Virus record (IMG/VR): IMGVR_UViG_3300020440_001329
Location: 1 to 26,270 of that record
Strand: one strand, 5' to 3'
Length of the DNA: 26,270 nucleotides
Source of the DNA: a virus
Lineage: Duplodnaviria > Caudoviricetes
Of the stretch, positions 3 to 21,037 are shown one piece after another; position 1 is the stretch's first letter, and every line of letters begins with the position of its first letter. The position numbers were made by a program, and so were the translations under genes. The notes under the pieces are model-generated. The model was not told where the DNA came from and made no database searches. It saw nothing but the letters and a program-made list of their open reading frames with translations.

Positions 3-326
3 TTTGCGAGCTGCAGTTGTAGTGCAACACCATTACAACGCAGGAAATCAAATGCACCTTCGCGCAAAAAGTCTAAGGGCTATTATGCGAAAGTAAAGTC
101 TGGAAGCGGAACTGGCTCCAAAGCCGGTGGTGGAATGACTGCTAAAGGTGTAAGAAAATATCGTAAAGATAATCCGGGGTCAAAGCTTAAAACGGCCGTG
201 ACAACTCCTCCTTCAAAACTTAAAAGAGGTAGTAAAGCCTGGAAGCGTAGAAAATCATTTTGTGCCAGATCTAGAAGCTGGAAGTCAGAGCGTGGTAAAG
301 CAGCACGCCGTAAATGGAACTGCTAA
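3..326 (+). CDS. Small, highly basic phage protein (DUF6321-like), 5'-truncated by the window edge
   Basis: The frame of the listed 135..326 ORF is open back to position 3 (FASCSCSATPLQRRKSNAPSRKKSKGYYAKVKSGSGTGSKAGGG-MTAKG...). GGMTAKGV..YR..NPGSKLKTAVT...RRKSFCAR...ARRKWNC resembles a recurrent small phage protein family (from recall). Confidence 0.7.
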   Translation, partial: FASCSCSATPLQRRKSNAPSRKKSKGYYAKVKSGSGTGSKAGGGMTAKGVRKYRKDNPGSKLKTAVTTPPSKLKRGSKAWKRRKSFCARSRSWKSERGKAARRKWNC

Positions 327-360: not shown

Positions 361-1959
361 ATGGCAATACAATTCGGTTCGCCTAAAATAGTTAAAGAAC
401 TAAGCTTTAAAGATGAAGCTAAGAAAAAACTTATTAAAGGCATTGATAAATTAGCGGAGGCTGTAGGCAGCACGCTAGGAGCTTCCGGGAGGACGGTGGT
501 ACTTGAAGATGATTTCGGTAATCCGCATGTTACAAAAGATGGGGTTACTGTTGCAAATTATGTTAACTTAGAAGACCCTGTTGAAAACTTAGGTGTTACT
601 ATGTTAAAGCAGGCGTCTCGTCAAACAGCATCTAAAGCAGGAGATGGTACTACAACCTCAACAGTGCTTGCACAAGCCATTATTCATAATTACTTTAAAC
701 AAAACGGTGAAGACTATTCATTTCGTGATGTTAAGAGTGGCATTATGGCTTTTGCGAAACATACATTAAAACAATTAGAAAAAAGAAGTGTTTCCGTTGA
801 TGATAAAAGATTAAACCAAGTCTCAAGAATATCAGCCAATAATGACACTGAGCTTGGTGACTTTATAGCAGAAGCATTTAAATCAGCGGGAGATAACGGA
901 GTAGTTACCATGGAGACATCTCCAACAAACGAAACGTATATAGATGTAGTAGATGGAACACATATTAATGCTACATCAAAAAGTATACACTTCTATACTA
1001 ATAGAGAAAAGGAAATAGGGGAGTTAGAAAAACCCCTTATATTCTTGTGTGCTTCTGAAGTTACTAATATCAGAAGAATACAAATAATATTAGAGCATGC
1101 GATTAAGTCCAATAGATCGTTACTGCTCATTGCCCCTTGCGAACAGCAGGTAGTGTCAGCTTTAGCAATGAATCACGTAAAGGGCAATATTAAGTGTAAT
1201 ATCATAGATCCTCCGTCGTTTGGGCTGAAACGTAAGGACATATTAGATGATATTGCCCTTCTAACGGGTGCTACTGTTATTGATGAAAGTCTAGGCGACT
1301 CTCTAGATAATATCACCCCAGAAGTGTTAGGACAGGCCGATAAGGCTATCATAGATAATGATGGTACTACTCTTGCTATTAAAGAGGTATCAAAAGAAGT
1401 TACAGAACGCGTTGATTATTTAAAGGCGCAGTTAGATGAAGAAGATCACCATGTGATGCGACCACATATTGAAAACCGCCTGGCTATATTATCAGGAGGC
1501 GTTTCTATAGTATATGTTGGTGGCGATACAGATGTTGAGGTTTCAGAGAAAAAAGATCGCGTCGACGATGCTATACACGCCGTGCGTGCTGCAAAAAAAG
1601 AAGGTATACTACCAGGAGGTGGTTCAGCTTTAGCTTTTGTTGCTGGTGCGGATTGGGAAATGAAACTAAAACCAGGTGAGCTTGCAGGTGTTAATATATT
1701 GAAAAGTTCTTTATATGCACCTTTTTTACTTATATTAAGTAATGCAGGATTAGATATATCAAGCTACCCTAAACTAGATGGATGGGGCAAAGGTATTGAT
1801 GTTACAGATGGTAAAATTAAAGACATGCGTAAAGCTGGAATTATAGATCCATTATTAGTAACTAAGTCTGCTCTTCAAAACGCTATATCTGTAGCCACTA
1901 CGATTCTTTCAACTGATTGTGTAATTTCAAATGTACGAGAAGGTGAAGGCAATAGGTAG
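361..1959 (+). CDS. groEL: Phage-encoded group I chaperonin GroEL (Cpn60), 532 aa
   Basis: VTKDGVTVA, AGDGTTTSTVLAQA ATP-binding motif, ISANND, PSFG..RKDILDDIALLTG, EKKDRVDDA, GILPGGG, GIIDP. No C-terminal GGM tail. Confidence 0.97.
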   Translation: MAIQFGSPKIVKELSFKDEAKKKLIKGIDKLAEAVGSTLGASGRTVVLEDDFGNPHVTKDGVTVANYVNLEDPVENLGVTMLKQASRQTASKAGDGTTTSTVLAQAIIHNYFKQNGEDYSFRDVKSGIMAFAKHTLKQLEKRSVSVDDKRLNQVSRISANNDTELGDFIAEAFKSAGDNGVVTMETSPTNETYIDVVDGTHINATSKSIHFYTNREKEIGELEKPLIFLCASEVTNIRRIQIILEHAIKSNRSLLLIAPCEQQVVSALAMNHVKGNIKCNIIDPPSFGLKRKDILDDIALLTGATVIDESLGDSLDNITPEVLGQADKAIIDNDGTTLAIKEVSKEVTERVDYLKAQLDEEDHHVMRPHIENRLAILSGGVSIVYVGGDTDVEVSEKKDRVDDAIHAVRAAKKEGILPGGGSALAFVAGADWEMKLKPGELAGVNILKSSLYAPFLLILSNAGLDISSYPKLDGWGKGIDVTDGKIKDMRKAGIIDPLLVTKSALQNAISVATTILSTDCVISNVREGEGNR

Positions 1960-2203
1960 ATACATTATTATCTCTGAAATAAAAGAAGATATAAAGAAAA
2001 CAGATGGTGGACTGCTACTTGCAGAAAGTCATCGCGAAGATATAAGATACCGCACTGCAGATGTTATTTCTGTGGGCACAGCGGTAGAAGGTGTAAATAT
2101 AAATGACAAAATATATTATGACAGGCATGCTGGGCATAATATAGAAATTGGTAAAGATATTTATAAAGTTATACAGGAGCAAGATGTTATAATAGTATTG
2201 TAA
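1931..2203 (+). CDS. groES: Co-chaperonin GroES (Cpn10); true start may be GTG at 1943 (MKAIGRYIII)
   Basis: KTDGGLLL mobile loop, VISVG...V..ND.IYY, YKVIQEQDVIIV. Overlaps the 3' end of groEL. Confidence 0.9.
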   Translation: MYEKVKAIGRYIIISEIKEDIKKTDGGLLLAESHREDIRYRTADVISVGTAVEGVNINDKIYYDRHAGHNIEIGKDIYKVIQEQDVIIVL

Positions 2204-12910: not shown

Positions 12911-13498
12911 ATGAGGTCATTATACAATTATATTATATCAACAAATAACAGATACAAGAATAAAACATCTGTTGAAGGAAAAGAACTTATATTAAACACC
13001 GAAGTTACCGAAAGAGATTACGAGTTTGTAAATAGAGTAGGTACAGTTGTAAGTGTTCCTATAAACATAAAAACCCCTATAAAGCCGGGAGACAATGTTA
13101 TAATACATCATAATGTATTTAGAAGATGGTATGACATTAGAGGTAACGAAAGAAATTCAGGTAATTATATAGACGAAAACAGATACACTGTATCGCCAGA
13201 AGAATTGTTTGCTTATAAACAAAACGACAAATGGCATTGCCCTAATATGTATTGTTTTGTAGAACCTTTAGAAAACGAAGACATATGGAGCGCCGAGAGT
13301 GAACAAAAACTTTTAGGAGTGCTTACATATACTAATGACTATTTAAGCTCGTTAGGTGTAGCCTGTGGCGATATTGTAGGGTTTACACCTGATTCTGAAT
13401 ACGAATTTAACATAGATGATAAAAAATTATATAGAATTTTATCAACAGAAATAACTATCAACTATGGACATAAAAAAGAAACGAATACTTATTCTTGA
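12911..13498 (+). CDS. Protein with two tandem GroES-like domains, 195 aa
   Basis: Domain 1: LILNT...GTVVSVP...IKPGDNVII...YTVSPEELFA. Domain 2: YCFVEP...GVL...VACGDIVGF...EYEFNIDDKKLYRI...EI. Confidence 0.65.
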   Translation: MRSLYNYIISTNNRYKNKTSVEGKELILNTEVTERDYEFVNRVGTVVSVPINIKTPIKPGDNVIIHHNVFRRWYDIRGNERNSGNYIDENRYTVSPEELFAYKQNDKWHCPNMYCFVEPLENEDIWSAESEQKLLGVLTYTNDYLSSLGVACGDIVGFTPDSEYEFNIDDKKLYRILSTEITINYGHKKETNTYS

Positions 13499-13724
13499 AG
13501 CTGCTGAAAATTCAATTAATGAATTGATAAAAGTAATGAATAAGAAAATGGATCCAGATGAACTAGATCCTGAAAAAGTAAAAATATCAGCCTCAGCTTA
13601 TAGGCTTGCGATGGAAGATGCTATTGCGCTTTTGCAAAGAGTAGAAGAAATAAATGAAATGATGAACGAAACACCTAAGACTGCTAAAGACAGTTTTTAC
13701 GGTGTAGAAAACAGAGCTAAATAA
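13464..13724 (+). CDS. Small helical protein, candidate terminase small subunit
   Basis: 86 aa, helical pattern, TAATG-coupled immediately upstream of terL. The call is positional only. Confidence 0.45.
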   Translation: MDIKKKRILILEAAENSINELIKVMNKKMDPDELDPEKVKISASAYRLAMEDAIALLQRVEEINEMMNETPKTAKDSFYGVENRAK

Positions 13725-15961
13725 TGTATAAACAAAATCTATATGCTATACACTCTGCGCATTTGTCTACAAAAAATGTAAAAAGAAACAATAAGCTAAA
13801 AAATTATAAGTACGGTTATAATGATGATCTTGACTGTGTAGTAATAAGTAAAGATGGTACCATAGGTGAAATTTTTGAAGTACAAGGATTACGTATTGCA
13901 CTGCCTGCAATACCTAAAGAAGTATATTCAAATAGCGAAAAACCTGAAGATCAAGTTTTTAAGCAAACCTTAAAACCCGCTACGCTATCAAAGATTAAAT
14001 CAATACATGATTTTCAATTATATCCAGATGACATTAAAGAAAAGTATTACGAATATATTAATTCAGAGTTTGATCGTCGCAGTGATGGCTACTGGTTTAT
14101 GTGCAACGGCACAGCAACCTATATCACAGGAACACACTATATGTACCTTAACTGGACAAAAATTGATATTGGTGCACCTGAATTTAGACAATCAAACAAA
14201 ATATTCTTTTACTTTTGGGAAGCCTGCAAGGCTGATTACAGATGTTATGGAATGTGCTATCTCAAAAATAGACGGAGTGGATTCTCCTTTATGGCTAGCG
14301 GAGAGACAGTTAATCAAGCTACAATATCAAAGGATGCAAGATTTGGGGTGCTATCAAAAAGTGGTAGTGACGCAAAAAAAATGTTTACCGATAAAATTGT
14401 ACCTATATCAATCAACTACCCGTTCTTTTTTAAGCCGATACAAGATGGGATGGAAAGACCTAAAACAGAACTTTCCTACAAAATACCATCCAAAAGACTT
14501 ACAAGGAATTCATTTAAAGCCACTGATCAAAGCGAAGTTCAAGTTGGCGAAGGGCTTGACACTACAATTGACTGGAAGAACACAGGCGACAACTCCTATG
14601 ACGGTGAAAAACTAAAATTACTAGTTCACGACGAATCTGGTAAATGGGAAAAGCCTGATAACATATTAAACAACTGGCGTGTTACTAAAACTTGTTTAAG
14701 ACTAGGCGCAAAAATAGTTGGCAAGTGTATGATGGGATCTACATCAAATGCCTTAGATAAAGGTGGCGAAAACTTTAAAAAATTATATAATGATTCAAAA
14801 GTTGAAAACCGAAACCGCAATGGGCAGACTGCTAGTGGACTATACTCTTTGTTCATTCCTATGGAATGGAATTATGAGGGATTCATTGACAAATATGGAT
14901 TTCCTGTCTTCGATAATCCAGAAGAACCAGTCGAAGGAATCGACGGAGAACTTATCAGAAATGGAGTCATCAATCATTGGGAGAATGAAGCAGATGGACT
15001 CAAAGGGAATAATGATGCTTTAAATGAATTTTATAGACAGTTCCCAAGAAGCGAAAAGCACGCATTTAGAGACGAAATAGAAAAGTCTTTATTCAATTTA
15101 AATAAAATATACGAACAAATAGATTTCAACGAAGAAATGACAATGAAGGGTTATGTAACCCGAGGTTCTTTTCAATGGAAAAACGGAGTTAAAGATTCTG
15201 CGGTAGAATTTTATCCAAATAAATCAGGAAGATTTAAATTATCTTGGATTCCACCGGTTGAAATGCAAAACAATATAATAGTAAAAAACGGTATTAAATA
15301 CCCGGGCAATAAAGATTTAGGTGCTTTTGGTTGTGATAGTTATGATATTAGCGGAACAACAGATGGCAGCGGATCTAATGGTGCTCTTCATGGGCTTACT
15401 ACATTTAGTATGCTTTCAGAAGTGCCGTCTAGTCAATTTTTTTTAGAATATGTTGCTAGACCACAAACTGCTGAAATATTTTTTGAAGATGTGCTTATGG
15501 CAATGATATTCTATGGAATGCCAATACTTGCTGAAAACAATAAACCTAGATTATTATATCATATTAAGAGAAGAGGCTATAGAGGGTTTTCAATGAATAG
15601 ACCCGATAAAGCATTTAGAAAATTATCTATAACAGAAAAAGAGTTAGGTGGTATACCCAATACTTCGGAAGATATAAGACAAGCTCATGCAGCAGCAATT
15701 GAAAGTTATATTGAAACTCACGTTGGGTTAAAAGAAAATGGTGATTGCGGCAGAATGTACTTTCAAAGAACATTAGAAGACTGGGCTAAATTTGATATTA
15801 ATAAAAGAACAAAATTTGATGCGTCTATAAGCTCAGGGCTTGCCATAATGGCTTGCCAAAGACACTTATATGCATCTAAAACCGTAAGAGAGGTTAAAAA
15901 AATAGACTTTGGATTTTCAAAATATAATAACCAAGGTTTAAAAAGTCAAATAATACAATAA
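13724..15961 (+). CDS. terL: Terminase large subunit (crAss-like), 745 aa
   Basis: Walker A-like LKNRRSGFS, Walker B LLVHDESGKW, MGSTSN coupling motif, nuclease acidic motifs FGCDSYD, LAENN, KFDASIS. Confidence 0.93.
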   Translation: MYKQNLYAIHSAHLSTKNVKRNNKLKNYKYGYNDDLDCVVISKDGTIGEIFEVQGLRIALPAIPKEVYSNSEKPEDQVFKQTLKPATLSKIKSIHDFQLYPDDIKEKYYEYINSEFDRRSDGYWFMCNGTATYITGTHYMYLNWTKIDIGAPEFRQSNKIFFYFWEACKADYRCYGMCYLKNRRSGFSFMASGETVNQATISKDARFGVLSKSGSDAKKMFTDKIVPISINYPFFFKPIQDGMERPKTELSYKIPSKRLTRNSFKATDQSEVQVGEGLDTTIDWKNTGDNSYDGEKLKLLVHDESGKWEKPDNILNNWRVTKTCLRLGAKIVGKCMMGSTSNALDKGGENFKKLYNDSKVENRNRNGQTASGLYSLFIPMEWNYEGFIDKYGFPVFDNPEEPVEGIDGELIRNGVINHWENEADGLKGNNDALNEFYRQFPRSEKHAFRDEIEKSLFNLNKIYEQIDFNEEMTMKGYVTRGSFQWKNGVKDSAVEFYPNKSGRFKLSWIPPVEMQNNIIVKNGIKYPGNKDLGAFGCDSYDISGTTDGSGSNGALHGLTTFSMLSEVPSSQFFLEYVARPQTAEIFFEDVLMAMIFYGMPILAENNKPRLLYHIKRRGYRGFSMNRPDKAFRKLSITEKELGGIPNTSEDIRQAHAAAIESYIETHVGLKENGDCGRMYFQRTLEDWAKFDINKRTKFDASISSGLAIMACQRHLYASKTVREVKKIDFGFSKYNNQGLKSQIIQ
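14007..14615 (+). CDS. Candidate overprinted (+1 frame) exported protein inside terL
   Basis: 202 stop-free codons. MTLKK-SITNILIQSLIVAVMATGLC-ATA|QQ resembles a signal peptide. terL codons around 14072-14127 are C-ending-rich. Confidence 0.4.
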   Translation: MIFNYIQMTLKKSITNILIQSLIVAVMATGLCATAQQPISQEHTICTLTGQKLILVHLNLDNQTKYSFTFGKPARLITDVMECAISKIDGVDSPLWLAERQLIKLQYQRMQDLGCYQKVVVTQKKCLPIKLYLYQSTTRSFLSRYKMGWKDLKQNFPTKYHPKDLQGIHLKPLIKAKFKLAKGLTLQLTGRTQATTPMTVKN

Positions 15962-15964
15962 AAA

Positions 15965-18325
15965 ATGGCAGAAGCTACAGGACAAGTTACCCAATTTCCC
16001 AGCCAATCGGTTGACGATGCTACAAAAGCTAGCATGGACTACGGAATGGAAGTGGCCCGCGGTATACAAAATGAATGGTTTAGAAAATCATCTGGCACAG
16101 GAAGGTTCGTCCAAAATCAACGAGACTTTCATAAACTAAGATTATACGCCAGAGGTGAGCAATCTGTTCAAAAATATAAAGATGAGTTTTCTGTAAACGG
16201 AGATTTATCTTATCTTAATCTTGATTGGAAACCAGTACCAATTATACCTAAGTTTGTGGATATAGTTGTTAACGGTATGCAAGATAGGTTATTTACAGTT
16301 AAAGCTTTTGCACAAGATCCAACATCTGTTAAAGAAAGAACTGATTTTGTAGAAAGCGTGCAAATTGATATGCAAACTAAAGATTTTGTTGACGACGTAA
16401 ACAATACTCTTGGTATAAATATAAGTAATACAGACCCAGACGATCTTCCAGCTTCTAATGATGAACTTGAGCTGTATATGCAAATAGGTTATAAACAATC
16501 TATAGAATTAGCTCAGGAGCAGGCAATTGATAATGTTTTTAAAAGAAACAGTTATCCTGAAATTAAAAAGCGCATAGATTATGATCAAACAGTTTTAGGC
16601 ATCGGCTGCGCAAAGCACACGTTTAATAACACAGAAGGTATAAATATTGAGTATGTTGATCCTGCTAACTTAATATATTCTTACACGGAAGATCCTAACT
16701 TTGATGACGTATATTATTTTGGAGAGGTTAAGCAAATTAAGTCTAATGAACTTAAAAAACAATTCCCAGAATTAACAGATGAAGAATTTGAAAACATAGT
16801 TAAAAGTTCTTCTAACTATAATAATTACGATTATATAAATAGTGATTCTAATGATACAGTAGATACAAACACTTTAACCGTTTTGTATTTTAATTGGAAA
16901 TCTTGGGAAAAAAGCGTATACAAAATAAAAGAAACATCTACTGGTGCTAAAAAAGCTATAAAAAAAGACGATAGTTTTAATCCACCTAAAGACCAAAGAA
17001 CAAGATTTGAAAAAGTAGCTCAAGCAAGAGAAACTATATACGAAGGCGTAATGGTTCTTGGATCTGATAAGCTTCTTAAATGGGAAAAAGCTACTAATAT
17101 GGTTCGCCCTGATTCTAACGTTAATAAAGTAATGATGAATTACGTTGTTAGCGCACCTAGAATGTATAAGGGTAAAATTGAAAGCTTAGTAAGTAGAATG
17201 GTTACTTATGCTGATTTAATTCAGCTTACACATTTGAAACTACAACAAGTAATACAGAGAATGACGCCGTCAGGTGTTTATTTAGATGCTGATGGACTTG
17301 CAGAAATTGATTTAGGCAATGGAACGAATTATAATCCGCAAGAGGCTTTAAATTTATATTTTCAAACAGGTTCAGTTATAGGTAGGTCTATGACGGTAGA
17401 CGGCGATGTAAATCCTGGTAAAGTGCCAATACAAGAATTACCCGGAGGGGGAGGTCAACAATCAGCATTGCTTATACAAGCGTATAATTATTATTTAACA
17501 ATGATGCGCGATGTAACGGGATTAAATGAAGCAAGAGATGGGTCAGACCCTGATCCCTATGCGCTAGTTGGTGTACAAAAATTAGCTGCTGCAAATTCTA
17601 ATACAGCAACAAGGCACATTTTGCACAGCTCTTTATATATTACTAGTACGTTAGCAGAAGCTATATCAGTAAGAATAAAAGATGTATTAGAATATCACCC
17701 GCAAAGAGACGCTATGATTAGCGGTATCGGAAGATTTAGTGTTGGAGCATTAAAAGAAATGGATAAATTACACATTCACGATTTTGGTATATTTTTAGAT
17801 TTAGATCCAGACGAAGACGAAAAACAACTTGTAGAAAATAATATACAAGCTGCATTGTCAAGAGACCAAATACATCTTGAAGATGTTATTGATATTAGGC
17901 AAATTAAAAATATTAAATTAGCAAATCAATTATTAAAATATAGAAGAGCTAGAAAAGCTGCTGCTGATCAAATTAAAGCAGAAAGAAATATTGCTGCTCA
18001 GTCTGAGGCTAATGCAAAAGCCGCGCAAGCTGCTGAAATGGCAAAAGCACAAGCTGAAAGCATAAAAGCTGAAGCTAAAGGCAAGTTAGCCGAATTACAA
18101 ACAGAGCTTGATATTAAAAAATTAGAAACAGAAGCAAACACTAAACGGCAATTAATGCAATATGAATTTGATTTAAATATGAAGCTTAAAGAAATGGAGC
18201 TTGATACTAAAAAAGAAATTGAATTGCAAAAGCCGCCATCAAATCCAAAACCTAAAAAAGGTTTTGAGTCCTCCGGAAACGACGTTTTAGGCGGAATAGA
18301 TTTAAGTGGTTTTGAACCAAGATAA
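15965..18325 (+). CDS. Portal protein (crAss-like), 786 aa
   Basis: Directly after terL; VPIIPKFVDIVV, FQTGSVIG, TGLNEARDG, HDFGIF motifs and C-terminal coiled coil. Confidence 0.88.
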   Translation: MAEATGQVTQFPSQSVDDATKASMDYGMEVARGIQNEWFRKSSGTGRFVQNQRDFHKLRLYARGEQSVQKYKDEFSVNGDLSYLNLDWKPVPIIPKFVDIVVNGMQDRLFTVKAFAQDPTSVKERTDFVESVQIDMQTKDFVDDVNNTLGINISNTDPDDLPASNDELELYMQIGYKQSIELAQEQAIDNVFKRNSYPEIKKRIDYDQTVLGIGCAKHTFNNTEGINIEYVDPANLIYSYTEDPNFDDVYYFGEVKQIKSNELKKQFPELTDEEFENIVKSSSNYNNYDYINSDSNDTVDTNTLTVLYFNWKSWEKSVYKIKETSTGAKKAIKKDDSFNPPKDQRTRFEKVAQARETIYEGVMVLGSDKLLKWEKATNMVRPDSNVNKVMMNYVVSAPRMYKGKIESLVSRMVTYADLIQLTHLKLQQVIQRMTPSGVYLDADGLAEIDLGNGTNYNPQEALNLYFQTGSVIGRSMTVDGDVNPGKVPIQELPGGGGQQSALLIQAYNYYLTMMRDVTGLNEARDGSDPDPYALVGVQKLAAANSNTATRHILHSSLYITSTLAEAISVRIKDVLEYHPQRDAMISGIGRFSVGALKEMDKLHIHDFGIFLDLDPDEDEKQLVENNIQAALSRDQIHLEDVIDIRQIKNIKLANQLLKYRRARKAAADQIKAERNIAAQSEANAKAAQAAEMAKAQAESIKAEAKGKLAELQTELDIKKLETEANTKRQLMQYEFDLNMKLKEMELDTKKEIELQKPPSNPKPKKGFESSGNDVLGGIDLSGFEPR

Positions 18326-18355: not shown

Positions 18356-19573
18356 ATGGCAAAATGGACAGTAAAGGGCGTCATAGATGACGAACCTAAA
18401 ACAAAACAAGAAACAGAACAAGCGGTTCTTGACAAAGCGGTTGAAAAGGGGGAAATAGAACCTGAAGCTGCTGGCAAAGAATCAGAAGAAACACCAAAAA
18501 TTGATTTAGATGCCGTTCAGAAGCAAAGCACAGATGAGGTTCCTGTACGCGACGAACCCACAACTAGCGAAAAAGTTCAAGAAGAAAACATCGAAAACAA
18601 AGATGAAGACACTTCCGGAGAAACTCAAGAAGACGAGTCGCCGATCGAAATCGTCAATGAGGAGGAAACTCCGCAGGTAAATGATCAGCCAAAAGTTGAT
18701 CAAAGAGCCGCTGAAATAAACGAACAACCACAACCTGTGGAACAAACACCACAAGTTGAGCTACCAGAAAATATTGATAAACTAATTAAGTTTATGGATG
18801 AAACTGGAGGCACTCTTGAAGATTATGTTAATATGAATAGAGATGTTTCAGATTTATCCGACGGTGAACTATTAAGACAATATTATTCTCAATCAAAACC
18901 TTGGGACTCACAAGAAATAAACGAATATATGGAAGATAATTTTTCATATGACCAAGAAGAAGATGAGCCAAGAGATATACGTTCTAAGAAAAGAGCGTTT
19001 AAAGAAGAACTTCATAATGCACGTAAATTTTTTAATAATCACAAAGAAAAGTATTACGCGGATCTTAAGTTAAACCGCCAAAAAGAAATTCCACAAGATT
19101 ATCAAGAAGCTTATAATGCATATGGTGAATATACAAAAGAACAAGAATTAAATAAACAACTTAATCAGGTTTTTTTAGAAAGAACAGACGGCGTATTTAA
19201 CGATGACTTTAGAGGTTTTGATTTCCAAGTTGGAGACAATAAATACCGTTATAAAGTTAATAACGTTAATGAAACAAAACGCCTACAATCTGATATTTCT
19301 AACTTTATCAAACCTTTTATGAATGATAAAGGTGAAATTGGAAATGTTACTGGGTATCACAAAGCTTTATTCGCTGCACGAAATGCAGATAAGCTAGCGC
19401 AGCATTTTTATGAGCAAGGCCGTGCCGATGCTTTAAAACAAAATGCTAAAGACGCTAAGAATATTGATATGACACCCAGACAAGAAGGTACAATACAAAC
19501 AAAAACCGGTCAAAAATTTAAAGTTGTTTCTGGCGATTCTAGTTCTAAACTAAGAATTAAACTTAAACAATAA
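18356..19573 (+). CDS. Acidic protein between portal and capsid, probable scaffolding protein
   Basis: E/Q/P-rich disordered N-terminal third, helical C-terminal part (HFYEQGRADA); position in the head module. Confidence 0.7.
   Translation: MAKWTVKGVIDDEPKTKQETEQAVLDKAVEKGEIEPEAAGKESEETPKIDLDAVQKQSTDEVPVRDEPTTSEKVQEENIENKDEDTSGETQEDESPIEIVNEEETPQVNDQPKVDQRAAEINEQPQPVEQTPQVELPENIDKLIKFMDETGGTLEDYVNMNRDVSDLSDGELLRQYYSQSKPWDSQEINEYMEDNFSYDQEEDEPRDIRSKKRAFKEELHNARKFFNNHKEKYYADLKLNRQKEIPQDYQEAYNAYGEYTKEQELNKQLNQVFLERTDGVFNDDFRGFDFQVGDNKYRYKVNNVNETKRLQSDISNFIKPFMNDKGEIGNVTGYHKALFAARNADKLAQHFYEQGRADALKQNAKDAKNIDMTPRQEGTIQTKTGQKFKVVSGDSSSKLRIKLKQ
18510..18680 (+). CDS. Overprinted 56-aa basic protein (+1 frame) nested in the scaffold gene
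   Basis: MPFRSKAQMRFLYATNPQLAKKFKKKTSKTKMKTLPEKLKKTSRRSKSSMRRKLRR*. The N-terminal motif resembles standalone small phage proteins of MPFKSKAQ.R..YA..P type (from recall). Host-frame codon usage shifts over this span. Confidence 0.7.
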   Translation: MPFRSKAQMRFLYATNPQLAKKFKKKTSKTKMKTLPEKLKKTSRRSKSSMRRKLRR

Positions 19574-19585
19574 ACATTTTAAAAA

Positions 19586-21037
19586 ATGGCTTTAACAACT
19601 GGAATTGAACATTTAACTCCCTCGCCAAGTAAAGGGACGTTATTCCAAGGTAACTATATTACCGATTTTGATTTTACAAAACAATTTTTACCAGACGTAT
19701 ACGAAAAAGAAGCTGAGGTTTACGGAAATCGTTCTATCTCTTCTTTCTTGCGTATGGTGTCTGCTGAGATGCCCTCTGCTTCTGACGAAATAAGATGGGT
19801 AGAACAAGGAAGATTACACATCCGCTACGACAATGTTGCTTTAGGTACTGCTAATGCAAATGGCACAGTAGTATTTACTGTAACTTTTGACGCAAATCCT
19901 GATGCTGTAGCTTATGCTGCTGGTGCTGCTCCTGCCGTACGTGTAGGTCAAACTATTATGGTACAAGGACAAACTTCAGCTGGTGCTGCTACTGGACCTG
20001 TACTTAAAGGTGTAGTAACTGTAGCTGGTGCTGCTGCTGCTGGAGACACAGGTACTTTCTCAGCTGTATGTTATACTGCTGCCAACTTTAACACCGTTAC
20101 TGGAGCTGCTTCTTATGATCACGCAACTGTATTAGTATATGGTTCTGAGTTTGCAAAAGGAACAGACGGAATGGACGGGTCAATTGATGCTTCTTATAGC
20201 TCATACACTAACAAACCAATTATCTTAAAAGATAACTACGCTGTTAATGGATCTGACACTGCTCAGATTGGTTGGATTGAAGTTACTTCTGAAAACGGAG
20301 CTTCTGGATACCTATGGTATTTAAAATCAGAGCATGAAACGCGTCAGCGTTTTGAAGATTACCTAGAAATGGCTATGGTAGAAGCTGTAGAAAAAGCAGG
20401 TACTGCTGGATCAGCTTTCCCATCTAACATTACTGGTTCTGAAGGGTTATTTGCTGCTCTAGAAAGCAGAGGAAATGTATTTACAGATCTTTCTGCTGAT
20501 ACAGATCTTTCTGATTTTGATACTATTCTTAAGCAACTAGATAAGAATGGTGCTATTGAAGAAAACATGCTTTACACAGATAGAGATCTATCTTTATCAA
20601 TTGATGATGGATTAGCTTCTAAAAATTCTTACGGGTCTGGTGGTACTTCTTACGGAGTATTCAACAACTCTGAAGATATGGCTTTAAATTTAGGATTTGC
20701 TGGTTTCCGCAGAGGTTCTTATGACTTCTACAAAACTGATTGGAAATATCTAAATGATTTTGCTACTAGAGGCGGATTTGGTGACATCGAAGGAGTACTT
20801 ATTCCTGCTGGTACATCAACTGTATACGATCAGCAATTAGGTCAAAATATTAAACGACCATTCTTGCATATCCGATACAGAGCATCTGAAACTGATGATA
20901 GAAAAATGAAAACTTGGATTACAGGTTCTGTAGGTGGAGCTTATACTTCTACTACTGACGAAATGCGAGTTTCTTTCTTATCTGAAAGATGTTTGATTAC
21001 TCAAGGAGCTAATAACTTCTTCTTATTGAAAGACTAA
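19586..21037 (+). CDS. Major capsid protein (crAss-like, presumed HK97 fold), 483 aa
   Basis: Position after portal and scaffold; WVEQGRLH, GSEFAKGT, GSDTAQIGWIEV, GYLWYLK, LNLGFAGFRRG motifs; strong GCT/TCT/ACT bias suggests high expression; hairpin follows. Confidence 0.9.
   Translation: MALTTGIEHLTPSPSKGTLFQGNYITDFDFTKQFLPDVYEKEAEVYGNRSISSFLRMVSAEMPSASDEIRWVEQGRLHIRYDNVALGTANANGTVVFTVTFDANPDAVAYAAGAAPAVRVGQTIMVQGQTSAGAATGPVLKGVVTVAGAAAAGDTGTFSAVCYTAANFNTVTGAASYDHATVLVYGSEFAKGTDGMDGSIDASYSSYTNKPIILKDNYAVNGSDTAQIGWIEVTSENGASGYLWYLKSEHETRQRFEDYLEMAMVEAVEKAGTAGSAFPSNITGSEGLFAALESRGNVFTDLSADTDLSDFDTILKQLDKNGAIEENMLYTDRDLSLSIDDGLASKNSYGSGGTSYGVFNNSEDMALNLGFAGFRRGSYDFYKTDWKYLNDFATRGGFGDIEGVLIPAGTSTVYDQQLGQNIKRPFLHIRYRASETDDRKMKTWITGSVGGAYTSTTDEMRVSFLSERCLITQGANNFFLLKD

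Follow-up and report, generated by a model that had tools for sequence, protein, structure and literature searches.

A small gene of 56 codons almost certainly lies nested in the +1 frame of a probable head scaffold gene of the window, the whole 26,270-nucleotide stretch of phage DNA that we analysed. The explanation that, taken as a whole, we think probably correct is that of an old, selected nested gene with a likely late, head-internal product that binds and neutralises the packaged DNA. The genes and regions concerned are as follows.

13724..15961, + strand: terminase large subunit gene (phrog_6681, E 2.5e-165)
15965..18325, + strand: portal gene (phrog_6547, E 6e-136)
18356..19573, + strand: host gene of 405 aa, probable head scaffold (from its position between portal and capsid genes, its pI and predicted long helices)
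18496..18509, + strand: probable initiation region of the nested gene (A run at -14 to -10, A at -6, TAG directly before the ATG)
18510..18680, + strand: nested gene of 56 aa, in the +1 frame of the host gene, kept in relatives and under purifying selection
18510..18626, + strand: conserved core of the nested gene, codons 1-39, with predicted helices at 6-15, 17-26 and 29-33; the rest is a variable basic tail
19586..21037, + strand: probable major capsid gene (phrog_13704 'virion structural protein', E 3e-97; capsid role from position)

Read off the DNA, the nested frame shows an in-frame TAG at 18507-18509, then the ATG at 18510, and it ends with a TAA at 18678-18680; the initial annotation had proposed a second gene with these limits, and both its coordinates and its translation are correct. 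The ORF spans host codons 52-108, and it is an embedded overlapping gene in the usual sense, since it lies entirely within the 405-codon gene, in another frame, with both frames open. Our recount of the peptide gives 14 K and 8 R, which agrees with the 22 K/R reported before, with a single acidic residue and a pI of 12.0. The uncommon host-frame codons that had been said to mark the overlap (gcc, cgc, gac, ccc, atc, tcg, ccg and gtc) are all eight present there, each making up 3-25% of its own synonymous class in seven window genes, and C at host codon position 3 is more frequent within the overlap than elsewhere (0.26 versus 0.10, Fisher p = 0.002). The stretch 18300/18343-18654 is matched without difference or indel by contigs from two DNA runs of other studies; since these contigs repeat the stretch without indels, the nested frame is no assembly slip. 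Contigs from RNA libraries also span the nested stretch, and such contigs can show neither frame nor transcription. A second nested gene, starting at ATG 18681, was considered and rejected, as it has 12 codons, is lost in relatives and is altered in one RNA-library contig.

The host gene encodes an acidic, helical protein between the portal and capsid genes, as expected of a head scaffold, and on this position and make-up we consider it a probable one. Its pI is 4.68, its N-terminal 138 residues hold 41 D/E versus 14 K/R, and its C-terminal domain is conserved and predicted to be helical. The protein has no match of useful score to PHROG, Pfam or PDB folds, and no likeness to curated or solved scaffolds among them; a PDB fold search with the C-terminal domain gave nothing useful, a result that says neither that the fold is new nor that one is absent. 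The closest cultured relatives of the host protein, at 31-36% identity in the C-terminal part, come from Flavobacterium Elemovirus phages, in which the relative is annotated as 'structural protein', and from Maribacter phage Panino; because of these relatives, the window phage likely infects Flavobacteria.

The nested ORF is conserved across relatives of the host gene. An intact, ATG-started +1 ORF is found at 33 of the 35 loci retrieved with the host protein, and in 62 of 80 relatives (58 by profile and 4 divergent ones by eye), the 80 being the best of 539 confirmed with a profile of the C-terminal domain only, in 6 of the 64 parts of the collection. The initial annotation had asked whether the +1 ATG and stop are conserved in scaffold homologues, and we find the ORF intact in 75 of 95 distinct full-length host genes, the window included, that were retrieved by host gene alone. 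These 75 ORFs are 37-69 codons long; 69 begin M-P and 6 begin M-S-P.

We compared the two frames in 35 disjoint pairs drawn from the set retrieved by host gene, with pN/pS as a ratio of uncorrected proportions. Over the first 14 nested codons, pN/pS is 0.30 (bootstrap 0.19-0.39) in the small frame and 1.03 (0.88-1.25) in the host frame, a span in which conservation is favoured because the motif used to call nesting lies in codons 1-8. The 22-codon span gives 0.35 in the small frame versus 1.22 in the host frame, and the host C-terminal domain gives 0.22. An upstream control, made without gap alignment, has ratios of 0.76-0.86 in the host frame and 0.66-0.71 in the +1 frame. An earlier estimate from 87 genes partly retrieved with the peptide (0.17, 1.25 and 0.19) is superseded by these pairs. 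The suppressed synonymous change in the host frame that had been anticipated is thus present, and the overlap is under purifying selection in the small frame and under none in the host frame. In contigs of other runs, the variants at 18569, 18572 and 18668 each leave the small-frame protein unchanged but alter a host residue, two of the three coming from a single contig of depth 2.5. At the DNA level, other phages' contigs begin to fit the window at 90% or more near the nested ATG and diverge again by 18550-18576, so that 18508-18576 is an island of DNA conservation at the start of the nested gene. The gene is also dispensable: it is missing from 20 of the 95 host genes, from one complete 63-kb genome and from phage Panino. 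We found no copy of the nested family in P-SSM2, Panino or the complete genome G001 with a first-look filter that is not fully sensitive.

The same small gene is lodged in a second, unrelated place. In all 68 elemo records and MW202828 it lies within a giant virion gene, again in the +1 frame, and the 68 Flavobacterium elemo records leave it unannotated. One such Elemovirus copy, at MT497114.1 3582-3710, would encode a 42-residue product. Scanning with the Elemovirus subtype, we found 80 loci: scaffold relatives account for 56 and giant genes for 24, of which one is truncated where its contig ends. The 23 positive records among 32 have one copy each; most of the 32 were picked for having a copy, and the telling point is that there is no second one. 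Positive records include 14 of the 15 that are near complete. The scaffold loci of 16 giant-type genomes hold no copy, two of these loci being incomplete at the start. The initial annotation had proposed a functional tie between the basic peptide and the acidity of the scaffold, and this is not supported, since in these relatives the gene sits in the giant virion gene and the scaffold lacks it.

An Elemovirus giant-gene copy and a scaffold copy share 27 of their first 28 residues. Their DNA is alike at 101 of 129 bases in the ORF but at only 36 of 80 upstream and 38 of 77 downstream, such that the likeness stops at the start and the stop of the ORF (flanks 45-49%). Each of four sequence subtypes is found free, scaffold-nested and giant-nested. 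AU tests reject a single clade both for the giant-borne copies (p 0.027) and for the scaffold-borne copies (p 0.003), and do not reject a single origin of all nested copies (p 0.115), on a peptide tree that is weak (40 columns, 3 starred branches). On the host tree, giant-type genomes fall on separate branches, absences are scattered, and well-supported branches force 14 changes, less about two that concern one row and the outgroup. We conclude that the small gene very probably moved between host genes.

In nine pairs of host genes with and without the small gene, the host frame remains open and the overlap is remodelled; the closest such pairs differ by in-frame deletions of 21-69 bases, with flanks that are still similar. 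Because gene loss leaves the host frame open, the host residues of the overlap appear to be a tolerant linker. The peptide had originally been described as overprinted on the scaffold, and our results reverse this order: the small frame is conserved and widespread while the overlying host residues are neutral and deleted in frame upon gene loss, which makes the small frame the older of the two, with the acidic host stretch over it as a by-product. An open frame is the only constraint that the host gene imposes on the nested gene. Codon 3 is TTC in all 20 of 20 nested copies, as opposed to 9 of 21 free copies.

On this reading, the nested gene is a member of an old and widespread phage family that sits, shifted by one base, in an acidic linker which the probable scaffold can do without. 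Judging from the order portal - small gene - ~290-aa gene - capsid that is seen at three free loci, an upstream extension of the scaffold frame may have swallowed a free gene. Acquisition of a -1 frame without stops (with codon 3 as TTC, for instance, and never TTT) would have made it a portable dual-coding piece, which recombination could shift among low-complexity linkers of structural genes or, instead, swap for another family member. A broader proposal, which we put forward only tentatively and hold to be rather doubtful, is that a dual-coding cassette free of nuclease or recombinase hops by recombination between free sites, the scaffold linker and the linker of giant injected proteins, and that its 38-residue product is a general N-terminal module for head loading or DNA anchoring in thousands of phage proteins, from marine Flavobacteria phages to phiKZ.

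L423 and L425 have giant genes that both belong to phrog_32588; one of them nests the small gene at about codon 499, and in the other genome the small gene is free, five bases past the stop. At L406 the nested copy is shortened to 22 codons and is apparently decaying before loss. The giant host genes of L427 and L429 match phrog_10089 'DarB-like antirestriction' in their C-terminal parts, which fits injected proteins. L419 is nested by our rule and was counted as free.

The nested protein, by sequence comparison, belongs to a large unstudied phage family. Our family profile retrieved 233 short called proteins and 920 longer ones, and at a 50% identity threshold the family falls into 4,501 clusters, of which 649 reach E <= 1e-10; a few of the clusters are repeat artefacts. 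Standalone homologues had been suspected, and they exist: free-standing copies with a closed -1 frame are found in 023Pt_psg01 (annotated), in C75C1, P-RSP2 and S-CBS2 (unannotated) and as Geostin gp43, and further free-standing relatives are Barnyard gp9 and Patience gp10, as well as phiKZ gp165.1 and 201phi2-1 gp383, which have an insert. The 201phi2-1 protein aligns to both halves of the profile around an insert of about ten residues. Family phages infect Flavobacteria, cyanobacteria, actinobacteria and, as jumbo phages, Pseudomonas. Among 41 loci on phage-like contigs in bins of the genome collection, 21 are free; scaffold relatives enclose 10 and giant genes the other 10. Near 14 of the 21 free loci there is a gene for a head or tail protein, eight of these with the portal (the scan covered 35 neighbouring ORFs from 19 of the 21 loci). 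Free-standing copies often follow the portal, and several adjoin replication genes.

By profile, phrog_1375 (Barnyard gp9, Patience gp10) and phrog_16759 (phiKZ gp165.1, 201phi2-1 gp383) are of the same family; their members are free-standing annotated genes, whereas the window gene is nested and belongs to a branch with an M-P-F start that has no curated model of its own. The window protein matches phrog_1375 over residues 3-51 at E 8.6e-5, as do 72 of 79 aligned relatives at E <= 0.01, while three free copies and the Elemovirus copy have no match to it. Since its match is weak beside that of Patience gp10 (E 1e-31), the window protein is a distant branch of phrog_1375. The nested peptide matched no Pfam family and no nuclease family, and a tblastn search with it against phages gave no match, although relatives used as queries did match. 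A link to DUF3008 (PF11450), for which the sole lead was an Atlas feature at 0.82, is not supported, as none of 79 members matched at E <= 0.1. PDB sequence matches to designed beta-propellers were set aside, as these were summed repeat matches only.

The conserved part of the protein is predicted to be a folded, lysine-rich three-helix unit of about 38 residues, with pLDDT 93-97 over residues 1-40 (AlphaFold2, 79 rows). A viral fold search matched uncharacterised family members, including the phrog_1375 and phrog_16759 proteins; a PDB fold search gave nothing useful (Foldseek; VIA-align, best Z 2.5) and shows neither a new fold nor the absence of one. A protamine is an arginine-dominated chain without a folded core. 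The nested peptide, called protamine-like at first, differs from this, with 8 R and 14 K in 56 residues and a conserved, aromatic and helical core of predicted fold; only its tail is a variable basic run.

The product of the nested gene putatively binds nucleic acid, and we regard a late, head-internal, DNA-binding protein as an evenly balanced proposition. The 38-residue helical core and the basic tail would bind DNA or the head interior, and a head-internal product would likely neutralise packaged DNA. In favour of such a role are the pI of 12 and the structural nature of the genes that house the small gene and of most genes beside it; its frequent loss counts against the role. Patience gp10 is only distantly related (19.9 bits); Table 1 of PMC4324244 counts it among the virion proteins, and Table S1 of that paper gives it 1 stringent spectrum from particles as against 4 and 2 from infected cells. 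For the phiKZ and 201phi2-1 relatives, matches extend over the initial 45-60 positions of two PHROG profiles labelled 'virion structural protein'; 201phi2-1 gp383 is without the mass-spectrometry virion mark that its neighbour gp382 has. At locus L395 (6881-7944), a run of small, very basic genes corresponding to Patience genes 111, 10, 11 and 12 follows the portal, and the spectra in PMC4324244 include 30-33 from particles for each of Patience 111, 11 and 12.

The core could instead be an N-terminal address tag for the prohead interior (capsid, portal or scaffold), which alone would serve as filler and when fused would load cargo; we hold this reading to be improbable though worth keeping in view, and it is compatible with DNA binding rather than exclusive of it. 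Consistent with a tag, the module is N-terminal in 113 of 120 listed longer relatives (96-980 aa, of the 920 found) and in 59 of 66 long proteins among 143 new representatives, the passengers behind it vary (ligase domains, lysozyme, DUF6321), and free copies cluster near portal and capsid genes. However, family phages differ greatly in their head proteins, such that a common ligand such as DNA fits better, and the N-terminus itself is not constant: six copies have an M-S-P start, and in actinophage members additional basic residues precede the motif. We consider it unlikely that the product is a late or injected effector without a structural role, directed at a machine of the host cell (ribosome, RNA polymerase or a defence protein). 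Its patchy presence and swapping of subtypes do resemble accessory genes, some free copies lie beside replication genes, and the Patience gp10 spectra are more numerous at 30 min than in particles in the table of PMC4324244; but the two lodging sites, like most of the neighbours, are structural genes, and the hosts belong to several phyla, which also argues against an effector.

The start of the nested gene appears to carry the A-rich initiation pattern of Flavobacteria. A at -13 is found in 86% of 74 nested starts and 90% of 21 giant-gene starts, similar to 96% of 68 capsid starts, as compared to 28% of 1,373 other +1 ATGs. Nested starts resemble capsid starts in having A at -13 to -11, -6 and -3, whereas other +1 ATGs differ; the window genome has T, not A, at -3. 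The genomes in this profile are related and so not independent, and the A pattern recurs in the giant-gene flanks. In Flavobacterium johnsoniae, initiation is reported to be driven by A at those upstream positions (PMC6847099). This start context supports putative translation of the nested gene, and ribosomes would start at its own ATG on a late structural message.

It is very unlikely that the frame is reached instead by +1 frameshifting, which would yield a fusion of the scaffold N-terminus to the basic tail. Three such chimeras do exist among database proteins (P0002, P0003 and P0140), and a phmmer search with the nested peptide returned two frameshift chimeras. However, the chimeras trace back to DNA in which single contigs have an indel, 79 of 79 loci have a +1 stop 0-9 codons ahead of the ATG, the ATG and its A-rich context are retained in two unrelated host genes, and free copies begin at the same residue.

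An open +1 frame is by itself weak evidence for a nested gene. The 56-codon frame stayed open in 3.8% of 20,000 random synonymous recodings of the host gene, and an open frame with an M-P-F beginning occurred in 0.09% of them. Host genes that lack the nested gene often contain open +1 stretches of 16-60 codons rich in lysine, but a chance open frame, or the shadow of a conserved scaffold motif, is refuted to the point of a negligible probability by free-standing homologues with a closed -1 frame and by host-frame ratios of 1.0-1.2 versus 0.30-0.35 in the small frame.

Embedded phage genes are exemplified by lambda Rz1 in Rz and by phiX174 E in the scaffold gene D. Like these, the window gene is small, lies wholly inside another gene in its +1 frame and has its own start, and it shares with E a location inside a scaffold gene. 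In Rz1 and E, the inner frame is usually regarded as the newer one and stays with a single host gene, whereas the inner gene here is the older one, with thousands of free relatives and two unrelated host genes. The internal proteins of T4 have an N-terminal capsid-targeting sequence. The window protein resembles these and protamine-like viral core proteins as a small, basic, putatively head-internal protein with an N-terminal module before variable cargo; we found no sequence or fold likeness to them, and both targeting and DNA binding are putative here.

A further parallel is the ShiLan element, described in PMC11855218 as a mobile insert in actinophage methylases that is stop-free in the host frame, encodes a real gene out of frame and is thought to be tolerated by the host protein as a loop. 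The window gene is similar in its patchy presence and in DNA likeness bounded by the insert. ShiLan is an HNH homing endonuclease that homes to one site (PMC11855218), whereas the window gene, with 37-69 codons, matches no nuclease family and is found at different sites in different genes. In a literature search that covered few subscription journals, we found no paper on the nested gene or its nesting, and none on a gene that encodes no enzyme, exists both free and fused as well as nested at two unrelated sites, and has been lost repeatedly.

Gene overlaps are commonly taken to be new frames that grew up on an old gene and became fixed in it. Here the inner gene is old, the outer residues are a by-product, and the pair is separable, as seen from repeated loss and from reappearance in another host gene. 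The free, scaffold-nested, giant-nested and lost states form a natural series for the study of how overlaps originate. The results also supply a gene that had been overlooked in an abundant group of aquatic phages, which includes cultured Elemovirus isolates (by an estimate from 6 of the 64 parts, about 7,500 stored stretches fit the pattern of the host gene), and they point to a large unstudied N-terminal module of phage proteins.

Elsewhere in the window, 135-326 (+) holds another small basic gene, a DUF6321 (Pfam E 1.7e-9), and DUF6321 also occurs within three long proteins that start with the nested gene's module. At 361-2203 (+) the translations are those of GroEL-like and GroES-like genes, a pair that is annotated in Elemovirus as well. 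A 195-aa gene upstream of the terminase (12911-13498, +) may be a second GroES-like gene, as the equivalent place in Elemovirus and Panino is annotated as a co-chaperonin.
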